This document shows positions 1 through 4,783 of a DNA stretch of 4,783 nt, piece by piece. Source of the DNA: Escherichia coli (lineage in GTDB: Bacteria > Pseudomonadota > Gammaproteobacteria > Enterobacterales > Enterobacteriaceae); assembly GCF_003334815.1 (NCBI RefSeq), contig NZ_QOWO01000075.1; one strand, given 5' to 3'. The position numbers and the translations under genes were made by a program. A model generated the notes under the pieces. It was not told where the DNA came from and did no database searches. It was given only the letters and a program-made list of their open reading frames with translations. Position 1 is the stretch's first letter. Each line of letters starts with the position of its first letter.

Positions 1-200
1 GGTCCCTCCTTCCCGTCTGCCGTGATTTTCCGGTCGTTCACCCGCTCAGATTTCGCGGTCTCACCCTCCAACTCCCGTCAGCCGTGTGCGTCAGGCTGCG
101 GCTTCCCTTGCGCCCTTGCATCCCCGCCTTATCGCCCGGCTTTTCTGGAGGCACGGCACCGCCCGGTGTCGCGGAATATGTGAACAACGGAGGAAATCCC

Positions 201-626
201 ATGCAGTATGCGAAACCTGTCACTCTGAACGTTGAAGAGTGCGACCGCCTTTCCTTTCTGCCTTACCTGTTTGGCAACGATTTTCTGTATGCCGAGGCGT
301 ATGTGTACGCGCTGGCGCAAAAAATGATGCCGGAATATCAGGGAGGCTTCTGGCATTTCATCCGCCTGCCGGATGGTGGCGGTTACATGATGCCGGATGG
401 CGACCGTTTTCATCTGGTCAACGGTGAAAACTGGTTTGACCGCACTGTGAGTGCTGATGCCGCAGGTATCATCCTGACTTCCCTTGTGATTAACCGCCAG
501 TTGTGGCTGTACCACGACAGCGGGGATGCGGGACTGACACACCTTTACCGGATGCGTGATGCGCAGTTGTGGAGCCACATTGAATTTCATCCCGAATGTA
601 ACGCGATTTACGCAGCACTGGACTGA
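201..626 (+). CDS. klcA: Anti-restriction protein, ArdB/KlcA family (141 aa)
   Basis: ATG at 201 preceded by GGAGG (189-193, 7-nt spacer). Translation carries family-typical blocks: [36 protein letters not shown] and C-terminal AIYAALD. The 141-aa length fits this family; the upstream in-frame start at 84 has no RBS and would give a poorly coding GC-rich extension. Confidence 0.85.
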
Positions 627-635
627 TTAACGGAC

Positions 636-654
636 GGGGCGGCGATGCCGCCCC
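636..654 (+). other. Intercistronic GC-rich hairpin (8-bp stem GGGGCGGC/GCCGCCCC, 3-nt loop), no U-tract
   Basis: Perfect inverted repeat 636-643 / 647-654 lying between the klcA stop (624-626) and the next gene's RBS (GGAG 661-664). Downstream sequence is not T-rich, so not a classic intrinsic terminator. Confidence 0.6.
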
Positions 655-672
655 TGTAAAGGAGACGAGAAC

Positions 673-1092
673 ATGTACTGTACTGTTAAAGAAATTATCC
701 GCGAAGTGCTGAATACAGACGTGCCGGACAGTGAATGTGTTTTTGCCGTGGTGCTGACCCGCGGGGATGTGCGCCACATAGCCCGGGACTGGAACCTGTC
801 AGACGATGAGCTGGAAACCGTCATGCAGCGGCTGGACGATGCTTTTGTATATGGCGCATGTGACAGAGTTGTTTCCGATATTGTCAATGAACTGATGGAG
901 GAAAAGCGCGTAAACCGTCTTGTAACAGTCCCTGCGGTGCTGCTGGAAAAAGTGATGGTGATGGCTGGTAGTGAAATTTATCGCCTCCATGCTGTAGGGA
1001 GCGAGAACGGGGGCGACGGTGACGCATTTGTCAGGGAAGAACGTGAGATTATGCGGGTAATGCGTCAGGCACTGGACGGGGAGAACGGGTAA
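673..1092 (+). CDS. Hypothetical leading-region protein, 139 aa (possibly DUF1380-like; assignment from memory, unverified)
   Basis: ORF with GGAG at 661-664 and 8-nt spacer to ATG 673. Acidic protein with coding-like composition; same strand and tight spacing with neighbours. Stop TAA 1090-1092 overlaps the next start. Confidence 0.75.
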   Translation: MYCTVKEIIREVLNTDVPDSECVFAVVLTRGDVRHIARDWNLSDDELETVMQRLDDAFVYGACDRVVSDIVNELMEEKRVNRLVTVPAVLLEKVMVMAGSEIYRLHAVGSENGGDGDAFVREEREIMRVMRQALDGENG

Positions 1093-1283
1093 TGAATATC
1101 AGCACGGAAACCCGCGAAATTCTGCGTAATTACAGGGCCGTGATTAATGCGCGGCGTCGTGAAATGGGGCAGAAACCGCTCACCACCGCGCAGATTGTTG
1201 ATGAAATCTGTGATTTTGTGGCGAATCAGCAGGCGGTTTTCCTCGGTGGTCACTACATCCTTCAGGGCAGCAGGCACAGGTGA
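1092..1283 (+). CDS. Small hypothetical protein, 63 aa, translationally coupled to the upstream ORF
   Basis: TAATG stop/start overlap at 1090-1094; GGGGAG at 1078-1083 with 8-nt spacer. No recognisable motif; called on context and coupling only. Confidence 0.5.
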   Translation: MNISTETREILRNYRAVINARRREMGQKPLTTAQIVDEICDFVANQQAVFLGGHYILQGSRHR

Positions 1284-1290
1284 TACAGGG

Positions 1291-1310
1291 CAGGCGGTGG
1301 AGGCCGCCTG
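1291..1310 (+). other. GC-rich hairpin just downstream of the 63-aa ORF stop (7-bp stem CAGGCGG/CCGCCTG, 6-nt loop)
   Basis: Inverted repeat 1291-1297 / 1304-1310 seen directly; begins 8 nt after the stop at 1281-1283. Confidence 0.45.
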
Positions 1311-1448
1311 TCAGCCCGCGCGAAAACCCCTGGCAGGCTGGCGCCTGCCGGAAGGGATGCGGGCCACGCTGGCGCGTCGCCCGTTACCCTTCCCGTTTGT
1401 GATGTGTCCGGAATGTTTTTTCCTGATGTTATGTTTCTGTGGTTACTG

Positions 1449-1477
1449 TTCTTCTTCTTCTTCTTCCTCTTCTTTCC
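1449..1477. repeat. Polypyrimidine simple-repeat tract containing (TTC)6 at 1449-1466
   Basis: Direct reading: ttcttcttcttcttcttc followed by ctcttctttcc; pyrimidine-only on the + strand for 29 nt. Confidence 0.9.
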
Positions 1478-1837
1478 GTTCCTCTCCTGTTTATGCCTTT
1501 TCCGGGCGTCCCCCTGGCGGGGCGGGCTGTCGTGAACGGAGCCAGCGGAGCTGTCTCCGCCCTGGCGGGCTTCCATCCCTGACGCAAAACCCCGGGTTTG
1601 CAGCGACCGGAACGGTCGCGCCACCCTTGTCGCGCCGTGGCCTGCGCTCCTGGCATCCCGGCAAAAAGACGCCGGGATGTAAGGCGCAACGCCGTTTCGC
1701 GCACGCGCTCTCCGTCGTTGCGGCGGGTCCCTGCTCATTGCCTGCCGGGTGCCACACACCCGTATGAGTCCCTGTCGCCGGGGGCTGATACAGCCACAAC
1801 CTGCCGCACTGACTGTCCAGGGTAAATGAACAGCCCA

Positions 1838-1873
1838 CAAAATTTTTTACCCAGAACCCGGTAAAAAATTTTG
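1838..1873. other. Perfect 14-bp AT-rich inverted repeat (CAAAATTTTTTACC / GGTAAAAAATTTTG) with 8-nt spacer
   Basis: Arms 1838-1851 and 1860-1873 are exact reverse complements. Flanked by a further imperfect pairing, 1813-1821 with 1882-1890 (8 of 9), suggesting a longer imperfect hairpin centred near 1855. Confidence 0.8.
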
Positions 1874-2252
1874 CGTTCTGCCCAGGACAGGTGCGTCAGG
1901 CCGTGGCAGTGATGCCCCTTGCGGCGAAGGTTCTCAAACGGGTGAAGTTCATACCACAGGGAATACAGCAGCAGGTTCCCGCGAAACGTCAAAACCGCGG
2001 CTCCCGAAACTCAACGGGTGATGTTCTTTAAAAATCAGGATTTATTTCAGGCTCCGGCAATACGCATTTATGTGTTCTGTCAGCATCCTGCTGACAGGTA
2101 ATGAGAACGCAGGAACAGAAGGAGGAATACACCGGAAAACGTCAGATGCAGATATGAAAAAAGCAGGTCAGGGACCTGCTTAATCCACGCCGAAGAGACT
2201 GTGCAACCAGTCTTTAAGGCACTGTTACCAACCTGTCATAAGGTATCCATTT

Positions 2253-2483
2253 ATGACTGTAAGCATTGTTTCACCTTCCGCAGCGGCTGTAAAGCCCCGT
2301 CGTCATACCCGTTTCAGACGCGAAGACATCCCCGCGCCGGAAATTGACCCCGTGCTGAAAGCCTTCGGGCGACACATTGCCCGGAGTTTTCGCCGGGGGC
2401 GTGGTGTACACATCCCCGCCATGAAAAACACGGCTTTCGGGCAGGTGCTCCGCACACTCGAACTGAAACGCGCTTTTAACTGA
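2253..2483 (+). CDS. Small arginine-rich hypothetical protein, 76 aa (possibly DUF905/UPF0401-like; unverified)
   Basis: ATG 2253 with weak SD (AAGG 2240-2243, 9-nt spacer); first ORF downstream of the structured element; co-oriented. Many R/K residues (KPRRHTRFRRED, RSFRRGRG). No motif recognised with certainty. Confidence 0.55.
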   Translation: MTVSIVSPSAAAVKPRRHTRFRREDIPAPEIDPVLKAFGRHIARSFRRGRGVHIPAMKNTAFGQVLRTLELKRAFN

Positions 2484-2491
2484 TGAGGTGA

Positions 2492-2511
2492 GCCGCCCCG
2501 CGAGGGGCGGC
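2492..2511 (+). other. Intercistronic GC-rich hairpin (8-bp stem GCCGCCCC/GGGGCGGC, GCGA tetraloop)
   Basis: Perfect inverted repeat 2492-2499 / 2504-2511 between the stop at 2481-2483 and the RBS AGGAG 2523-2527 of the next gene. Uses the same octamer pair as the 636-654 hairpin, in swapped arm order. Confidence 0.6.
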
Positions 2512-2534
2512 AACAGACAGAAGGAGAACATTTT

Positions 2535-3896
2535 ATGACATTATCAGCAATCACCATGACCGCCCCGGAAGCCGCCAGCCCGGTGCAGATGTACCGCGCG
2601 ACCTACTCACCGGATGATAACAAACTGCGCCTGTATGCCGCGTCACGTCTTGACCCGGAGACGTATAAAAAAGTGCATGATGCCGGTTTTCGCTGGGCAC
2701 CAAAACAGGCGCTGTTTGTCGCGCCAGCCTGGACACCGGGCCGGGAAGACGTGCTCCTCTCACTTGCCGGAGAGATTGAGGATGAAGACAGCACGCTCGC
2801 TGAACGTCAGGAAGCACGGGCGGAGCGGTTTACCGGATACAGCGGAAAGCGGGCCAGTGAATCCGCACAGGCACTTGATGAAGTGGAAAGACTGGCCGCG
2901 ATGATCCCGCCCGGTCAGCCCATTCTTGTGGGGCATCACAGCGAACGCCGCGCCCGTCGTGATGCGCAGCGTATTGAAAACGGCATGAAACGTGCCGTGA
3001 TGCTCTTTGAACGTGCGGAATACTGGGAAGAACGGGCGCGGTCGGCACTGCTTCACGCGAAGTATAAAGAACGCCCGGACGTTCGCTGGCGTCGTATCAA
3101 AAAAATCGAAGCGGATTTGCGCAAGGCTGAAAAGACCATCGCACAGTCGCAGAAATATCTGACGATGTGGCGGGCTGAATCGCTGGATCTGAATATGGCA
3201 AAACTCATCAGCAGTCATGACCATATCAGCGCCTGTTTCCCGCTGGATACGTATCCGCGCCCGGCAGAAAAAAGCCAGTATGAAGGGAGCCGGTCGTTAT
3301 GGTCGGCCCTGGATGATGACATCATCACCACGGAGCAGGCCCGCGAAATTGCGATCCGCTGTCATGAACGGCAGATTCAGCATCAGCAACGCTGGGTTAA
3401 CCACTATCAGAACCGCCTGATCTATGAGCGTGCCATGCTGGACGAAAGCGGCGGCGTGGTTACCCGGACACAGGATTTTGAGCCGGGCGGACAGGTTTTC
3501 AGCCGGGGCGAGTGGCTGACCATCATCCGCGTGAACAAAAGCAACGGGGCGGTGAGTTCAGTCACAACGCCGAATTACAGTTTTCTCGGGTACAGCGGCA
3601 CGATGAAAGTGACGCCCGATCGCATCACGGACTACAAAGCACCATCGGCAGAAGAGGCTGCCGTCGCCAGTCAGGCCGCGAAGCGTCCGCCGGTAGTCAA
3701 CTATCCGGGGGAAGGTTTCCGGGAAATGACAAAGGCACAGTGGGCCGCCCTGCCCCGGGACTGTAAGGCCGTGCGCAGTGTGGCAGAGACAGAAGACCAC
3801 GGGGCATACCGCTACCGCCGCACAATGGATAATAATTTCCGCCTGGTGAGTGTGTATATTACCGACATGAAAATCACGGAAATCCCACAGAAATAA
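2535..3896 (+). CDS. Protein of unknown function, 453 aa (possibly DUF3560-type leading-region protein; unverified)
   Basis: Long ORF with RBS AGGAG at 2523-2527 and 7-nt spacer to ATG 2535. Central highly charged, probably helical segment (ERQEARAERF ... RRARRDAQRIENGMKRAVMLFERAEYWEERARSALLHAKYKERPDVRWRRIKKIEADLRKAEKTIAQSQKYL). No catalytic motif recognised by eye. Confidence 0.9.
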   Translation: MTLSAITMTAPEAASPVQMYRATYSPDDNKLRLYAASRLDPETYKKVHDAGFRWAPKQALFVAPAWTPGREDVLLSLAGEIEDEDSTLAERQEARAERFTGYSGKRASESAQALDEVERLAAMIPPGQPILVGHHSERRARRDAQRIENGMKRAVMLFERAEYWEERARSALLHAKYKERPDVRWRRIKKIEADLRKAEKTIAQSQKYLTMWRAESLDLNMAKLISSHDHISACFPLDTYPRPAEKSQYEGSRSLWSALDDDIITTEQAREIAIRCHERQIQHQQRWVNHYQNRLIYERAMLDESGGVVTRTQDFEPGGQVFSRGEWLTIIRVNKSNGAVSSVTTPNYSFLGYSGTMKVTPDRITDYKAPSAEEAAVASQAAKRPPVVNYPGEGFREMTKAQWAALPRDCKAVRSVAETEDHGAYRYRRTMDNNFRLVSVYITDMKITEIPQK

Positions 3897-3901
3897 GGTA
3901 T

Positions 3902-3927
3902 ATCCCCCCGGGAAATCCCCGGGGGAT
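3902..3927 (+). other. Intercistronic hairpin containing two CCCGGG palindromes
   Basis: ATCCCCCCGGGAAATCCCCGGGGGAT: outer 7-bp stem 3902-3908 / 3921-3927, a C-C mismatch, inner 3-bp stem 3910-3912 / 3917-3919, loop AAAT. Lies between the stop at 3894-3896 and the RBS GGAG 3931-3934. Confidence 0.5.
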
Positions 3928-3942
3928 GACGGAGATAATGAC

Positions 3943-4506
3943 ATGCACAGTCAGTTAAGAGAACGTATCCGGCTGCTGCGCGCAAGGCTGGATAACGCCG
4001 CACCGGTTGCTGAAATCCGGGCTGAATCTCAGCTTTTTGTGACACCTGCCCCGGTCTGTGATCGCCTGGTGACGCTGGCGGAAATCAGCAATCGTGATCA
4101 CATTCTGGAACCCTCTGCCGGCACCGGGGCCATACTGCGGGCGATTCGGGATACCGCGCCGGAGGCCATGTGTGATGCGGTGGAGAGCAACAGCGGGCTG
4201 GTCCGGTATCTGCGGGAAAATTTTAACGGTGTCAGGGTACAGTGTGGCGACTTCATGGAATGGCAGCCGGTGCAGTATTACAGCCGGATTATCATGAATC
4301 CGCCGTTCAGCCACGGGCAGGATATCCGGCATATCCTGCGGGCCTTTTCCCTGCTGCGTCCGGGTGGCGTTCTGGTCGCCGTCTGTCTGAACGGGCCACG
4401 CCAGCAGGAGAAGCTGTTACCGTTTTCTGACATCCGCGAGGAGCTGCCGCGCGGCACGTTTGCTTATACCCATGTTCCGACGATGATTATTCGTCTGCGC
4501 GCCTGA
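3943..4506 (+). CDS. Orphan SAM-dependent methyltransferase, 187 aa (amino-methyltransferase fold; N6-adenine/N4-cytosine DNA MTase-like, no recognisable target-recognition domain)
   Basis: RBS GGAG 3931-3934 with 8-nt spacer. Motif I (AdoMet binding) ILEPSAGTGAIL near residue 55; motif IV NPPF near residue 119 (IIMNPPFSHGQD). Motif order I then IV and the small size indicate a minimal MTase core. No adjacent restriction endonuclease gene in the window. Confidence 0.85.
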   Translation: MHSQLRERIRLLRARLDNAAPVAEIRAESQLFVTPAPVCDRLVTLAEISNRDHILEPSAGTGAILRAIRDTAPEAMCDAVESNSGLVRYLRENFNGVRVQCGDFMEWQPVQYYSRIIMNPPFSHGQDIRHILRAFSLLRPGGVLVAVCLNGPRQQEKLLPFSDIREELPRGTFAYTHVPTMIIRLRA

Positions 4507-4577
4507 TGACACAGGCAGGCGGGAGGATAAATGCCCGTCTGCCCGTGCCGGGAAAAAGACCGCGCGCCGGTGGCGCT

Positions 4578-4609
4578 GAAAGGGGCCGCGCTGACGCGCC
4601 GCCCCTTTC
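4578..4609 (+). other. GC-rich hairpin downstream of the MTase (13-bp stem with one mismatch, 6-nt loop), contains GCCGCCCC
   Basis: GAAAGGGGCCGCG (4578-4590), loop CTGACG, CGCCGCCCCTTTC (4597-4609). Followed only by a short TTTC, so at best a weak terminator. Confidence 0.5.
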
Positions 4610-4654
4610 ATTGCGCGGACGTTCTGCTGTGGACTTCTGTCTTTTCAGAACGGT

Positions 4655-4783
4655 CATTTGTCTGTTACTGATGATGTTGTTGTTCCTGCTACTGCTACTG
4701 CTACTGTTCTTCTTTTTTCTGCTGCTCTGATTACTGTCTGTTTTGTTGTTCTCCTGCTTATGCCTTTTCCGGGCGTCCCCCTG
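4655..4783 (+). promoter_or_regulatory. Start of a second copy of the Frpo/ssi-like element (truncated by window end)
   Basis: 4751-4783 (ctcctgcttatgccttttccgggcgtccccctg) matches 1484-1516 at 32 of 33 positions. Upstream there are shared ttactgttcttctt and ctgatgtt blocks plus a different simple-repeat tract. Confidence 0.6.
4670..4750. repeat. Compound simple-repeat tract: (GAT)2(GTT)3 at 4670-4684, (CTGCTA)3 at 4686-4703, T-rich pyrimidine run
   Basis: Direct reading of the sequence; differs in unit and copy number from the tract at 1449-1477 in copy 1. Confidence 0.9.

Follow-up and report, generated by a model that had tools for sequence, protein, structure and literature searches.

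Conserved GC-rich mRNA hairpins punctuate the leading-region operons of an IncF conjugative plasmid

In the leading region of an IncF conjugative plasmid, short GC-rich hairpins follow the stop codons of successive cistrons. These hairpins are real, conserved mRNA structures that are confined to noncoding DNA. They are not intrinsic terminators, since they lack a U-tract and the operon runs on beyond them. The explanation that we consider most likely, and to which we give about an even chance, is that they protect or insulate the mRNA of each cistron.

The window, i.e. the whole stretch of 4,783 nucleotides of Escherichia coli DNA that was analyzed, is part of such a leading region, and is matched by more than 5000 plasmids, most of them conjugative. 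It contains an operon of klcA/ardB, a DUF1380 gene and orf63, followed by an Frpo-type ssDNA promoter and a second operon of orf76, a DUF3560 gene and a methyltransferase gene (table 1); orf76 and the methyltransferase gene both terminate at tandem stops (TGATGA). Both operons read rightwards, use the transferred (minus) strand as their template and are driven by ssDNA promoters. The coding fraction of the window is 67%. For comparison the plasmid AP026744 (L001; 61 kb, 82% coding, 97% identical) was used, in which the genes are ordered from klcA to psiB, with oriT and traM downstream. In conjugation, the genes of the leading region reach the recipient cell before the others of the plasmid.

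Table 1. Features of the window and the basis of their assignment.
Feature	Position	Strand	Basis and remarks
End of noncoding segment upstream of klcA	1..200	-	putative 'class 2' ssDNA promoter site, by position
klcA/ardB-type antirestriction gene	201..626	+	ORF; labelled 'antirestriction protein' in matching plasmids
Hairpin J1, GGGGCGGC-GAT-GCCGCCCC	636..654	+	RNA fold -18.4 kcal/mol, z -3.0
DUF1380 gene	673..1092	+	ORF
orf63, closes klcA operon	1092..1283	+	ORF
Operon-end hairpin after orf63, GGCAGGCGGU-GGAG-GCCGCCUGUC	1289..1312 (initial annotation: 1291-1310)	+	-20 kcal/mol, z -1.3
Two more operon-end hairpins	1332-1349 and 1350-1393	+	latter imperfect, 20-nt arms
Pyrimidine-rich (CTT)n tract	1433..1483	+	precedes ssDNA-promoter repeat
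Frpo/ssi-type ('class 1') ssDNA-promoter repeat	1484..2035	-	fold and alignment
Candidate antisense RNA, Rfam AS-pc01-like	2158..2258	-	ends at terminator-like hairpin 2181-2161
orf76, small basic protein, opens second operon	2253..2483	+	ORF
Hairpin J4, GCCGCCCC-GCGA-GGGGCGGC	2492..2511	+	fold z -4.8
DUF3560 gene	2535..3896	+	ORF
Hairpin J5	3902..3927	+	7 pairs, C.C mismatch, 3 pairs; z -2.0
Core of J5, CCCCCGGG-AAATC-CCCGGGGG	3905-3925	+	
Class I SAM-dependent methyltransferase gene, closes second operon	3943..4506	+	ORF
First operon-end hairpin past methyltransferase stop	4514..4543	+	about -25 kcal/mol
Third operon-end hairpin	4577..4610 (initial annotation: 4578-4609)	+	begins 71 nt past stop
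Pyrimidine-rich tract and first 25 nt of next Frpo-type repeat	4664..4783	+	

An ssDNA promoter upstream of klcA/ardB has been described (Wen et al. 2025, PMC12672017; bioRxiv 10.1101/2025.04.03.647016), and the klcA and ssb operons have been placed under ssDNA promoters (PMC12672017, PMC9849209); the 'class 2' promoter upstream of klcA is named Frpo3 in one preprint. In the window, the transferred strand of the 'class 1' repeat forms a long stem-loop (DNA fold -155.7 kcal/mol, z -7.4) with a 14-bp palindrome at its apex (1838-1873), and the three copies of this block in AP026744 are near-identical throughout. The repeat that begins at the end of the window is the copy found upstream of ssb in full plasmids. 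The AS-pc01-like candidate RNA covers the start codon of orf76; its score (68.7 bits) lies under the Rfam gathering score of 79.

Cistron junctions in these operons come in two forms, either an overlapping stop and start without a hairpin, or a hairpin-bearing spacer of ~45-60 nt. In the latter the stop codon is followed by 1-21 nt (median 9), a hairpin of 7-10 bp, almost pure G/C, with a loop of 3-7 nt, and then a strong Shine-Dalgarno sequence, mostly 3-11 nt further on (about 20 nt at ykfF/parB). J1 begins 10 nt past the stop of klcA, with GGAG (661-664) 6 nt and the DUF1380 ATG (673) 18 nt downstream. For J4 the corresponding distances are 9 nt, 11 nt (GGAG, 2523-2526) and 23 nt (DUF3560 ATG, 2535), and for J5 they are 6 nt, 3 nt (GGAG, 3931-3934) and 15 nt (methyltransferase ATG, 3943). 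At the DUF1380/orf63 junction the stop and start overlap (TAATG, 1090-1094), and the fold there was unstructured, with no hairpin.

The initial annotation had listed five stem-loops, and all five were present on reading the sequence and in the folds; the observation as a whole was confirmed in part. Its statement that every gene junction carries one does not extend to the DUF1380/orf63 overlap. Likewise, the placement between a stop codon and the next ribosome-binding site is true of 636-654, 2492-2511 and 3902-3927 only, and not of the hairpins at the operon ends (1291-1310 and 4578-4609). The latter of these, said to sit just after a stop codon, begins 72 nt past it, and a first and stronger hairpin downstream of the methyltransferase stop (4514-4543) had been overlooked. 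The octamers of 636-654 do recur in 2492-2511 with the arms in reversed order (GGGGCGGC/GCCGCCCC). The 4578-4609 hairpin also holds the octamer, but only its GCCCC part pairs (with GGGGC), so the same stem is not reused.

The multi-hairpin blocks past orf63 and past the methyltransferase gene form a second class of hairpins. These blocks are mutually homologous and make up the beginning of a repeated block that precedes each Frpo-type promoter. The hairpin at 4514-4543 is homologous to that at 1289-1312 and carries a conserved sense-strand G.U pair, and 1350-1393 aligns to the AP026744 counterpart of 4577-4610. At 1289-1312, which has no ribosome-binding site downstream, G.U pairs form on the sense strand; the hairpin is kept in L008, L009 and L011, with G.U pairs in the sense strand only. 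The whole segment 4504-4640 folds with a z of -3.9. Noncoding DNA extends for about 940 nt past 1291-1310, and past 4578-4609 it reaches the end of the window (about 820 nt in AP026744). Arm polarity depends on the strand, and this too speaks for RNA: of 47 internal hairpins, 34 have a C-rich 5' arm, and of 22 operon-end hairpins, 21 have a G-rich one.

The number of such structures exceeds that expected by chance. Nine perfect, GC-rich hairpins (stem of 7 bp or more, loop 3-8) were counted in the window, compared with 0.94 +/- 0.97 in dinucleotide shuffles, and none of the nine lay inside the coding 67% of the window (binomial p 5e-5). GCCGCCCC and GGGGCGGC together occur five times in the window, each time within the hairpins initially noted. 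A similar frequency of the octamer in coding sequence had been named beforehand as an outcome against the initial annotation; in AP026744 it occurs seven times, always in noncoding DNA, and the claim was not refuted.

The punctuation of operons proposed in the initial annotation was upheld in other plasmids. In the leading-region operons of AP026744, all seven spaced junctions carry a hairpin (-17 to -21 kcal/mol), compared with 1 of 13 junctions at -17 kcal/mol or stronger in the tra region (Fisher p 1e-4). Equivalent punctuation was found in one IncI/K plasmid and in the IncW plasmid R388. In a small sample from MG1655, 4 of 10 spaced co-directional junctions reached -17 kcal/mol, indicating that hairpins past stop codons are generally not rare; those of MG1655 have A/U-containing stems, and at least one (secA/mutT) is a clear terminator.

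The hairpins are selected as structures, as follows from compensatory changes at homologous junctions. Their positions are kept between lineages in which the flanking proteins are only 27-86% identical, while the stems are altered by paired substitutions. J1 is kept in four lineages (L003, L004, L008, L009), in one of which, L004, a C-G pair has become U-A by a double change. J4, the loop of which is a GNRA tetraloop closed by a C-G pair, is kept in L003-L009, with a sense-strand G.U pair in L008 and a GGGA loop in L004. In a 13-lineage alignment of J5, five of nine pairs showed changes on both sides and 94% of cells paired, which was matched by none of 500 shuffles.

The strand on which this selection acts was indicated by the loops. 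Among 30 non-redundant tetraloops, 18 were GNRA or UNCG in the sense (mRNA) strand and one in the antisense (transferred) strand, an asymmetry which points to selection on RNA, although many of the compared hairpins are homologous and their counts are not independent events. The parB/psiB loop varies between lineages as UUCG, UGCG, UCCG, GAAA and GCGA. Moreover, several stems contain G.U pairs in the sense strand only (e.g. -20.6 vs -7.5 kcal/mol). Over the whole window, folding energy was only weakly strand-asymmetric (mean difference -1.08 kcal/mol vs -0.54 in shuffles).

The mRNA stem-loop reading of the initial annotation is thus favored by the tetraloops. In the proposed mechanism, each hairpin would be a fast-folding, highly stable stem-loop at the end of a cistron, which would block 3'-to-5' exonucleases as well as RNase E access or scanning over the stretch that is not translated. 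With the hairpin in place, the adjoining ribosome-binding site would also be spared from long-range pairing, and a brief burst of transcripts from single-stranded DNA could in this way yield more protein per cistron. The link of the hairpins to the upstream cistron, which is seen where the genes downstream of klcA or DUF3560 vary and also at operon ends, speaks for this proposal.

Alternatively, the hairpins could adapt transcription to a single-stranded template by keeping newly made RNA from pairing back onto the transferred strand. Without a non-template strand nothing displaces the RNA, and a hairpin in each untranslated gap, mirrored in the template, would keep downstream ribosome-binding sites accessible and limit RNA:DNA hybrids to designated priming sites. 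This proposal agrees with the selection on the RNA strand and the fast folding of GNRA/UNCG loops, with the position directly 5' of each Shine-Dalgarno sequence, with the absence of hairpins from overlapping, translationally coupled junctions, and with their higher frequency in the leading region than in tra. RNA made from ssDNA promoters is also reported to hybridize with DNA, and these RNA-DNA hybrids to serve as primers of DNA synthesis (Masai and Arai 1997, cited by bioRxiv 10.64898/2026.01.09.698686). It is nevertheless unlikely. Hairpins trail the last genes of operons, where there is no ribosome-binding site to free, and they remain behind klcA or DUF3560 even where another gene comes next. 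The establishment operons of R388 carry such hairpins too, and these operons are presumably driven by conventional dsDNA promoters, in which case operons with ssDNA promoters would not be alone in having the feature.

A role in translation rather than in mRNA decay, i.e. insulation of the ribosome-binding site from upstream structure, a standby platform for ribosomes, or uncoupling of cistrons by blocking 70S scanning, is quite unlikely. It would fit the short gap to the Shine-Dalgarno sequence (3-11 nt in the window), which is usually faced by the G-rich arm, and the translational efficiency adaptation reported for leading-region genes (bioRxiv 10.1101/2025.04.03.647016). However, the operon-end hairpins have no ribosome-binding site downstream, the distance to the next start varies where the downstream gene differs (Pantoea loci L013-L016), and it is with the upstream gene that the hairpin co-segregates.

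The GC-rich stems, stable tetraloops and position directly past stop codons are reminiscent of terminators, and the hairpins could act as weak attenuators or pause sites without a U-tract, which would give the operon a gradient of polarity, perhaps more effectively on an ssDNA template. This is improbable. No T-run follows any of the five hairpins initially noted, none of which was listed in a terminator scan of the window, and on this point the initial annotation was right; for internal hairpins, the 8 nt downstream contain 1.2 T on average. True terminators, with a hairpin and T-run, are present at the ycfA and yccB operon ends in the same region, so that the distinction looks deliberate. 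Furthermore, genes located downstream in these operons undergo strong induction at an early stage of conjugation (PMC12672017).

With DNA parameters, the palindromes form hairpins on the transferred strand too (-10 to -12 kcal/mol, z down to -5.6), where they could serve as priming or primosome sites, as pause sites for complementary-strand synthesis, to which the large ssDNA-promoter stem-loop is a known roadblock, or as SSB-free landmarks. A role while the region is single-stranded in transfer, also raised in the initial annotation, is however very unlikely, as the special tetraloops (18 vs 1) favor the strand opposite to the transferred one and the sense-only G.U pairs become C.A mismatches on it. 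In addition, arm polarity follows gene direction, and the hairpins keep their place with respect to stop codons and Shine-Dalgarno sequences.

Least probable of all, and hardly credible, is that a mobile or repeated palindrome (REP, BIME or MITE-like) has been copied to these sites, or that the hairpins are a mere by-product of high GC: GCCGCCCC recurs, and the 20-mer of J4 is found identically at a non-homologous junction (L025 parB/psiA), with matches also in the hairpins past IncI ardA and past R388 ardC, but the flanks are unrelated, copying or inversion would not produce the arm swap, the stems change over time in a compensatory manner while their positions stay fixed, nine hairpins were counted against 0.94 in shuffles, the octamer is absent from coding DNA, and many copies with conserved flanks or target-site duplications were not found elsewhere in host genomes. 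Since 7-8 bp stems of G/C only and 12 favored loops give about 1,500-3,000 sequences, such coincidences are expected. The interpretation given in the initial annotation was supported in part, and its 'family' does not hold in the sense of common descent.

The proposed protection or insulation of mRNA has a parallel in the REP/BIME extragenic palindromes, which act as intercistronic mRNA stabilizers, e.g. at malE-malF in E. coli. Both are GC-rich stem-loops without a U-tract, found on the mRNA strand either between cistrons or behind them, and both are proposed to hold up 3'-to-5' exonucleases, so that parts of a single operon transcript differ in stability. The window hairpins are not members of this group, as the initial term 'REP-like' might imply: the REP consensus is absent from them, their stems are of 7-10 bp compared with imperfect palindromes of ~35-40 nt, and they are not dispersed repeats of a shared sequence, the stem at each junction evolving by compensatory change. 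In their 7-10 bp GC-rich stem, frequent GNRA/UUCG loop and position a few nt past the stop they resemble Rho-independent terminators, but have no U-tract and a Shine-Dalgarno sequence 3-11 nt downstream, and the operon continues; genuine ends of the hairpin and T-run type lie past ycfA and yccB.

In phage T7, the early genes, which include the anti-restriction gene 0.3 and are on the first DNA to enter the cell, are separated by RNase III processing hairpins that, once processed, stabilize the upstream message. The likeness lies in stem-loop punctuation between the cistrons of a first-entering, anti-defence-rich operon of a mobile element. However, the T7 sites are irregular duplexes of about 20 bp that are cut by RNase III, whereas the window hairpins are too short to be substrates. 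The Frpo/ssi promoters (Frpo1-3; classes 1-3) share the region and the plasmids with the junction hairpins and are noncoding secondary-structure elements as well. They are stem-loops of several hundred nt in the transferred strand that rebuild -35/-10 boxes upstream of operons, whereas the junction hairpins are of 19-32 nt, lie inside operons or at their ends, and bear the signature of sense RNA.

The 4783-nt window has matches in over 5000 plasmids of enterobacteria, most of them conjugative IncF plasmids, the best being the 61-kb plasmid AP026744.1 (97.3% identity). The counterpart of the window in AP026744 is flanked by the stbAB/yccB region on one side and by ssb-parB-psiB-psiA on the other, with oriT and traM further downstream, and the window was therefore assigned to the leading region. 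The established polarity of F transfer places the leading region behind the nicked 5' end. It follows that the transferred strand is the minus strand of the window, i.e. the template of all of its genes.

The 970 nt that separate orf63 from orf76 include a repeat some 550 nt long (about 1484-2035), and minus-strand DNA of this repeat forms an extended stem-loop when folded (-155.7 kcal/mol, z -7.4). AP026744 carries three near-identical copies, 5' of orf76, ssb and yeiA. This repeat is the 'class 1' Frpo/ssi single-strand-DNA promoter, which passages in two papers (PMC9849209, PMC12672017) describe from F and IncI plasmids. The segment 5' of klcA is assigned to a 'class 2' promoter (Frpo3) in passages of PMC12672017 and of a preprint (bioRxiv 10.1101/2025.04.03.647016), so that the window comprises two operons with ssDNA promoters, plus the beginning of a third promoter block. 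Ahead of each Frpo-type copy stands a (CTT/CTG)n tract (window 1433-1483 and 4664-4750) that is pyrimidine-rich and poorly conserved; on the transferred strand it reads as purines.

Coordinates of genes, Frpo-type repeats and tandem stop codons in the window and in AP026744 (locus L001)
Feature	Window	Strand	AP026744 (L001)
klcA/ardB	201-626	+	
DUF1380 gene	673-1092	+	
orf63	1092-1283	+	
orf76	2253-2483	+	
DUF3560 gene	2535-3896	+	
class I SAM methyltransferase gene	3943-4506	+	
Frpo-type repeat	1484-2035 and 4759-4783		about 12950-13500 and about 18570-19120
Tandem stops TGATGA	2481-2486 and 4504-4509		8006-8011 and 16373-16378

The initial annotation listed five GC-rich hairpins (636-654, 1291-1310, 2492-2511, 3902-3927 and 4578-4609), and both reading of the sequence and folding reproduced their positions and structures. 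As it had noted, no T-run follows any of them (3' tails TGTAAAGG, TCAGCCCG, AACAGACA, GACGGAGA and ATTGCGCG), and the terminator scan reported none. The octamer pair said to form swapped arms at 636-654 and 2492-2511 was found exactly, with GGGGCGGC at 636 and 2504, GCCGCCCC at 647, 2492 and 4598, and no other copy in the window. GC-rich perfect hairpins (stem at least 7 bp, loop 3-8) numbered nine in the window against 0.94 +/- 0.97 in dinucleotide shuffles, and none of the nine lay in coding DNA, which occupies 67% of the window (p 5e-5). Moreover, all seven copies of the octamer, in either orientation, in the whole of AP026744 (82% coding) were noncoding, so recurrence of the octamer inside coding sequence was not observed. 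Given the shuffles, the restriction to noncoding DNA and the distribution of the octamer, chance is not an explanation for these hairpins.

The annotation went too far in placing a hairpin at every gene junction, since the DUF1380 gene and orf63 overlap (TAATG) and no hairpin is present there. The order stop codon, hairpin, Shine-Dalgarno sequence holds only for 636-654, 2492-2511 and 3902-3927; the hairpins at 1291-1310 and 4578-4609 stand at operon ends. The last of these, reported to lie just after a stop codon, begins 72 nt past it, and a stronger hairpin at 4514-4543 had been overlooked. The operon-end regions are mutually homologous (1289-1312 with 4514-4543, and 1350-1393 with 4577-4610), and make up the opening, less conserved part of the block that stands ahead of each Frpo repeat. 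Hairpins start 1-21 nt (median 9) 3' of the stop codons. It was also found that tandem in-frame stops (TGATGA) directly precede the hairpin in the orf76, methyltransferase, ycfA and parB genes.

The gene junctions in the leading operons of AP026744 are of two kinds, either overlapping or abutting (6 cases) or spaced by 44-60 nt. All seven spaced junctions (yfcB/ycfA, klcA/DUF1380, orf76/DUF3560, DUF3560/methyltransferase, ssb/ykfF, ykfF/parB and parB/psiB) carried a hairpin with an energy between -17 and -21 kcal/mol, whereas the tra region of AP026744 had one at 1 of its 13 spaced junctions (Fisher p 1e-4). Most operon ends of the leading region also had one. A like pattern was present in an IncI/K plasmid, including the 3' side of ardA, and among the leading/establishment genes of the IncW plasmid R388 (NC_028464.1) hairpins were found 3' of ardC, of two small ORFs and of the DUF3560 gene. 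In 50 kb of MG1655, a sample too small for a firm rate, strong hairpins occurred at 4 of 10 spaced co-directional junctions, and a post-stop hairpin is therefore not rare in itself. The stems in MG1655 contain A/U, and at least one of the hairpins is a clear terminator. What is distinctive in the leading region is the combination of position inside operons, absence of a U-tract, nearly pure G/C stems, special loops and conservation across lineages.

A DUF3560-anchored search with one genome per species gave 80 loci, and the IncF gene order was kept in 11 Enterobacterales loci, where the flanking proteins were 27-86% identical to those of AP026744. Every junction in the compared lineages had a hairpin at the same place, with its sequence altered pairwise. 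At yfcB/ycfA the variants were AUCGCCGCC-UUCG-GGCGGCGAU, CGCCCCGC...GCGGGGCG and CACGCCGC-UCCG-GCGGCGUG, and in the klcA hairpin GGGGCGGC was replaced by GGGGCGGU, with the partner arm ACCGCCCC. At parB/psiB they were CCGCCCCG...CGGGGCGG, CGCUGCCC-GAAA-GGGCAGCG and ACCGCCC-UCCG-GGGCGGU, these compensatory changes being read from the sequences and not from pair counts (the MAFFT alignment had two misregistered rows). For the hairpin after the DUF3560 gene, an alignment of 13 lineages had 94% of cells paired and 5 of 9 pairs altered on both sides, values reached by none of 500 column shuffles, while slid registers paired 36-63%. Judged by compensatory substitutions at homologous positions in the compared sequences, the junction hairpins behave as RNA structures under purifying selection.

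Outside Enterobacterales, 26 of 58 loci had a stem of 7 bp or more after the fused gene (mean z only -1.5), but these loci are uninformative for the hairpin after the DUF3560 gene because most encode a single DUF3560-methyltransferase fusion. The two domains are usually one fused ORF there (loci L017-L081; e.g. L017, 101-2056), and in enterobacterial plasmids they are two genes, split at the hairpin and Shine-Dalgarno site (window 3894-3945). Since the pairing is conserved across many phyla, the two domains probably act together.

Variation was also seen around the klcA hairpin. In a close relative (L003, 4512-4566) the DUF1380 gene is missing and the klcA hairpin with its Shine-Dalgarno sequence is followed directly by orf63, and in L004, L008 and L009 the hairpin is the same and the sequence 3' of it differs, which makes the hairpin the 3' boundary of a klcA module within a mosaic region. 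Contigs 98-99% identical to the IncF leading region (L002 and L003) come from metagenome-assembled genomes labelled Oscillospiraceae and Oscillibacter, and are more probably a product of misbinning than evidence of a Firmicutes host.

Because a palindrome folds on both strands, strand-specific features were examined. The two extra-stable RNA tetraloop classes are GNRA and UNCG. Among 30 non-redundant hairpins with 4-nt loops, these classes accounted for 18 of 30 loops on the mRNA strand and 1 of 30 on the transferred strand, with about 5% expected by chance. They were usually C-G closed, and the loop at single junctions varied between UUCG, UGCG, UCCG, GAAA and GCGA. Sense-strand G.U pairs, which are C.A mismatches on the transferred strand, occurred in the hairpin after orf76 in L008, in the hairpin after DUF3560 in L010 and in operon-end hairpins, giving energy contrasts of, e.g., -20.6 vs -7.5 kcal/mol; by reading of the sequences, L014 and L016 likewise had such pairs. 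C predominated in the 5' arm of 34 of 47 internal hairpins, and G in that of 21 of the 22 hairpins at operon ends. The G-rich arm of internal hairpins mostly adjoins the Shine-Dalgarno sequence, the klcA hairpin being the exception (L001, L003-L013 and L025). Over whole 60-nt post-stop windows the asymmetry between sense and antisense folding energy was weak once composition was controlled, and reliance was therefore placed on the loop classes and the specific G.U pairs. These data are good but not conclusive evidence that the mRNA would be the selected molecule, since the whole-window asymmetry is weak and homologous hairpins are not independent.

The recurrence of the octamer had been taken as the sign of a family. 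Shared descent is contradicted by the unrelated flanks of the hairpins and by the swapped arms of 636-654 and 2492-2511, which neither duplication nor inversion can produce. The 20-mer after orf76, GCCGCCCCGCGAGGGGCGGC, is also present 3' of parB in Erwinia dacicola (L025, 10668-10687), a non-homologous junction, and CTCCCCCGCTCCGGCGGGGG lies 3' of both ardA in the IncI/K plasmid (L083, about 18710-18735) and ardC in R388 (L084, about 22565-22590, minus strand). Stems of 7-8 bp made only of G/C, combined with a dozen favoured loops, allow only about 1,500-3,000 sequences, so that convergence is the simplest account of identical hairpins at unrelated junctions; transfer of hairpins or occasional copying is possible.

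In the window the 3' ends of the hairpins lie 3-11 nt from strong Shine-Dalgarno sequences, and hairpins remain with the upstream gene where the downstream gene is absent or different. We consider the chances about even that the hairpins are stem-loops that protect or insulate the ends of cistrons. In this role they would act as a barrier to 3' exonucleases and to RNase E access across the one part of the transcript that is not translated, and would leave the next ribosome-binding site free of structure. Such protection would raise the yield from a brief burst of transcription, which stops once the DNA turns double-stranded.

It is unlikely that the hairpins are instead an adaptation to the ssDNA template, keeping the nascent mRNA off the incoming strand. 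Ultra-stable tetraloop hairpins would then fold co-transcriptionally in every untranslated gap, with their complements folding in the template; ribosome loading would be licensed cistron by cistron, and RNA:DNA hybrids and priming of the complementary strand would be limited to promoter-proximal sites. If true, the hairpins would be a new class of functional element in the conjugative 'zygotic induction' programme. A purely translational role is quite unlikely. Weak attenuation is improbable, and across lineages the internal hairpins had a mean of 1.2 T within the next 8 nt. A role in the transferred DNA strand, on which the hairpins would still form as ssDNA (-10 to -12 kcal/mol), is very improbable. 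A repeat element or composition artefact is barely credible beside the shuffles and the octamer counts.

Leading-region operons carry anti-restriction, anti-SOS and ssDNA-binding genes that decide the establishment of resistance plasmids in a new host, and recent work on them has centred on ssDNA promoters. If the hairpins set the yield or lifetime of early transcripts, they would add a second, post-transcriptional layer to the establishment programme and offer a simple target for mutational tests. A stop codon, a GC tetraloop hairpin and a strong Shine-Dalgarno sequence within a 45-60 nt spacer form a signature that could help to flag operons of the leading region or of establishment in plasmids and ICEs lacking annotation, and to tell which strand is transcribed. 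In the parts of the literature reached by full-text search, coverage was of large ssDNA-promoter stem-loops, with no mention of small junction hairpins, and passages of one preprint (bioRxiv 10.1101/2025.04.03.647016) report no trend in palindrome density along leading regions.

The only sizeable Rfam hit in the window was away from the five hairpins, a match to AS-pc01 ('antisense to pHK01_035') at 2158-2258 on the minus strand (68.7 bits, E 5e-11, just below the gathering score of 79). Its end coincides with a terminator-like hairpin on the minus strand (2181-2161), which has a T-run behind it, and the orf76 start codon (2253) is covered by the match. These three features suggest a candidate antisense RNA that may control orf76, the first gene of the orf76-DUF3560-methyltransferase operon.

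Regarding known systems, the Rfam scan of the window gave no family at gathering score at any of the five hairpins, and the only overlap was a chance-level match to mir-6827 at 4570-4618 (22.1 bits vs a gathering score of 80, E 0.61). The suggestion that the hairpins are REP-like was not borne out, as the REP consensus (GCCKGATGCGRCGY...) was matched 6 times at 3 mismatches (expectation 4.2) and never at a hairpin. REP/BIME elements, whose proposed role is to shield upstream mRNA from 3' exonucleases, are imperfect palindromes of about 35-40 nt with many dispersed copies of shared sequence, whereas the window hairpins measure 19-32 nt and have stems that vary from junction to junction and from lineage to lineage, with only short GC words recurring. 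attC-like recombination sites and RNase III sites were dropped on size and shape, the stems being perfect over 7-10 bp with neither extrahelical bases nor a 20-bp duplex. Frpo/ssi promoters are stem-loops of several hundred nt on the transferred strand that reconstitute -35 and -10 boxes 5' of an operon. The junction hairpins are short and lie inside operons, the Frpo-type element is separate, and the promoter-box check of the window found no promoter hexamers at them; identity with ssDNA promoters was rejected, since both size and position are wrong. Intrinsic terminators share with them a GC-rich hairpin soon after the stop codon, but have a U-tract (at least 5 T in 8 nt) directly 3' of the stem, which the junction hairpins lack, in agreement with the view that they are not terminators. 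True terminators, with hairpin plus T-run, follow ycfA and yccB in the same region. Intercistronic stabiliser hairpins are already known in kind, and the junction hairpins of the leading region are a new, systematic instance of them in a topical setting.
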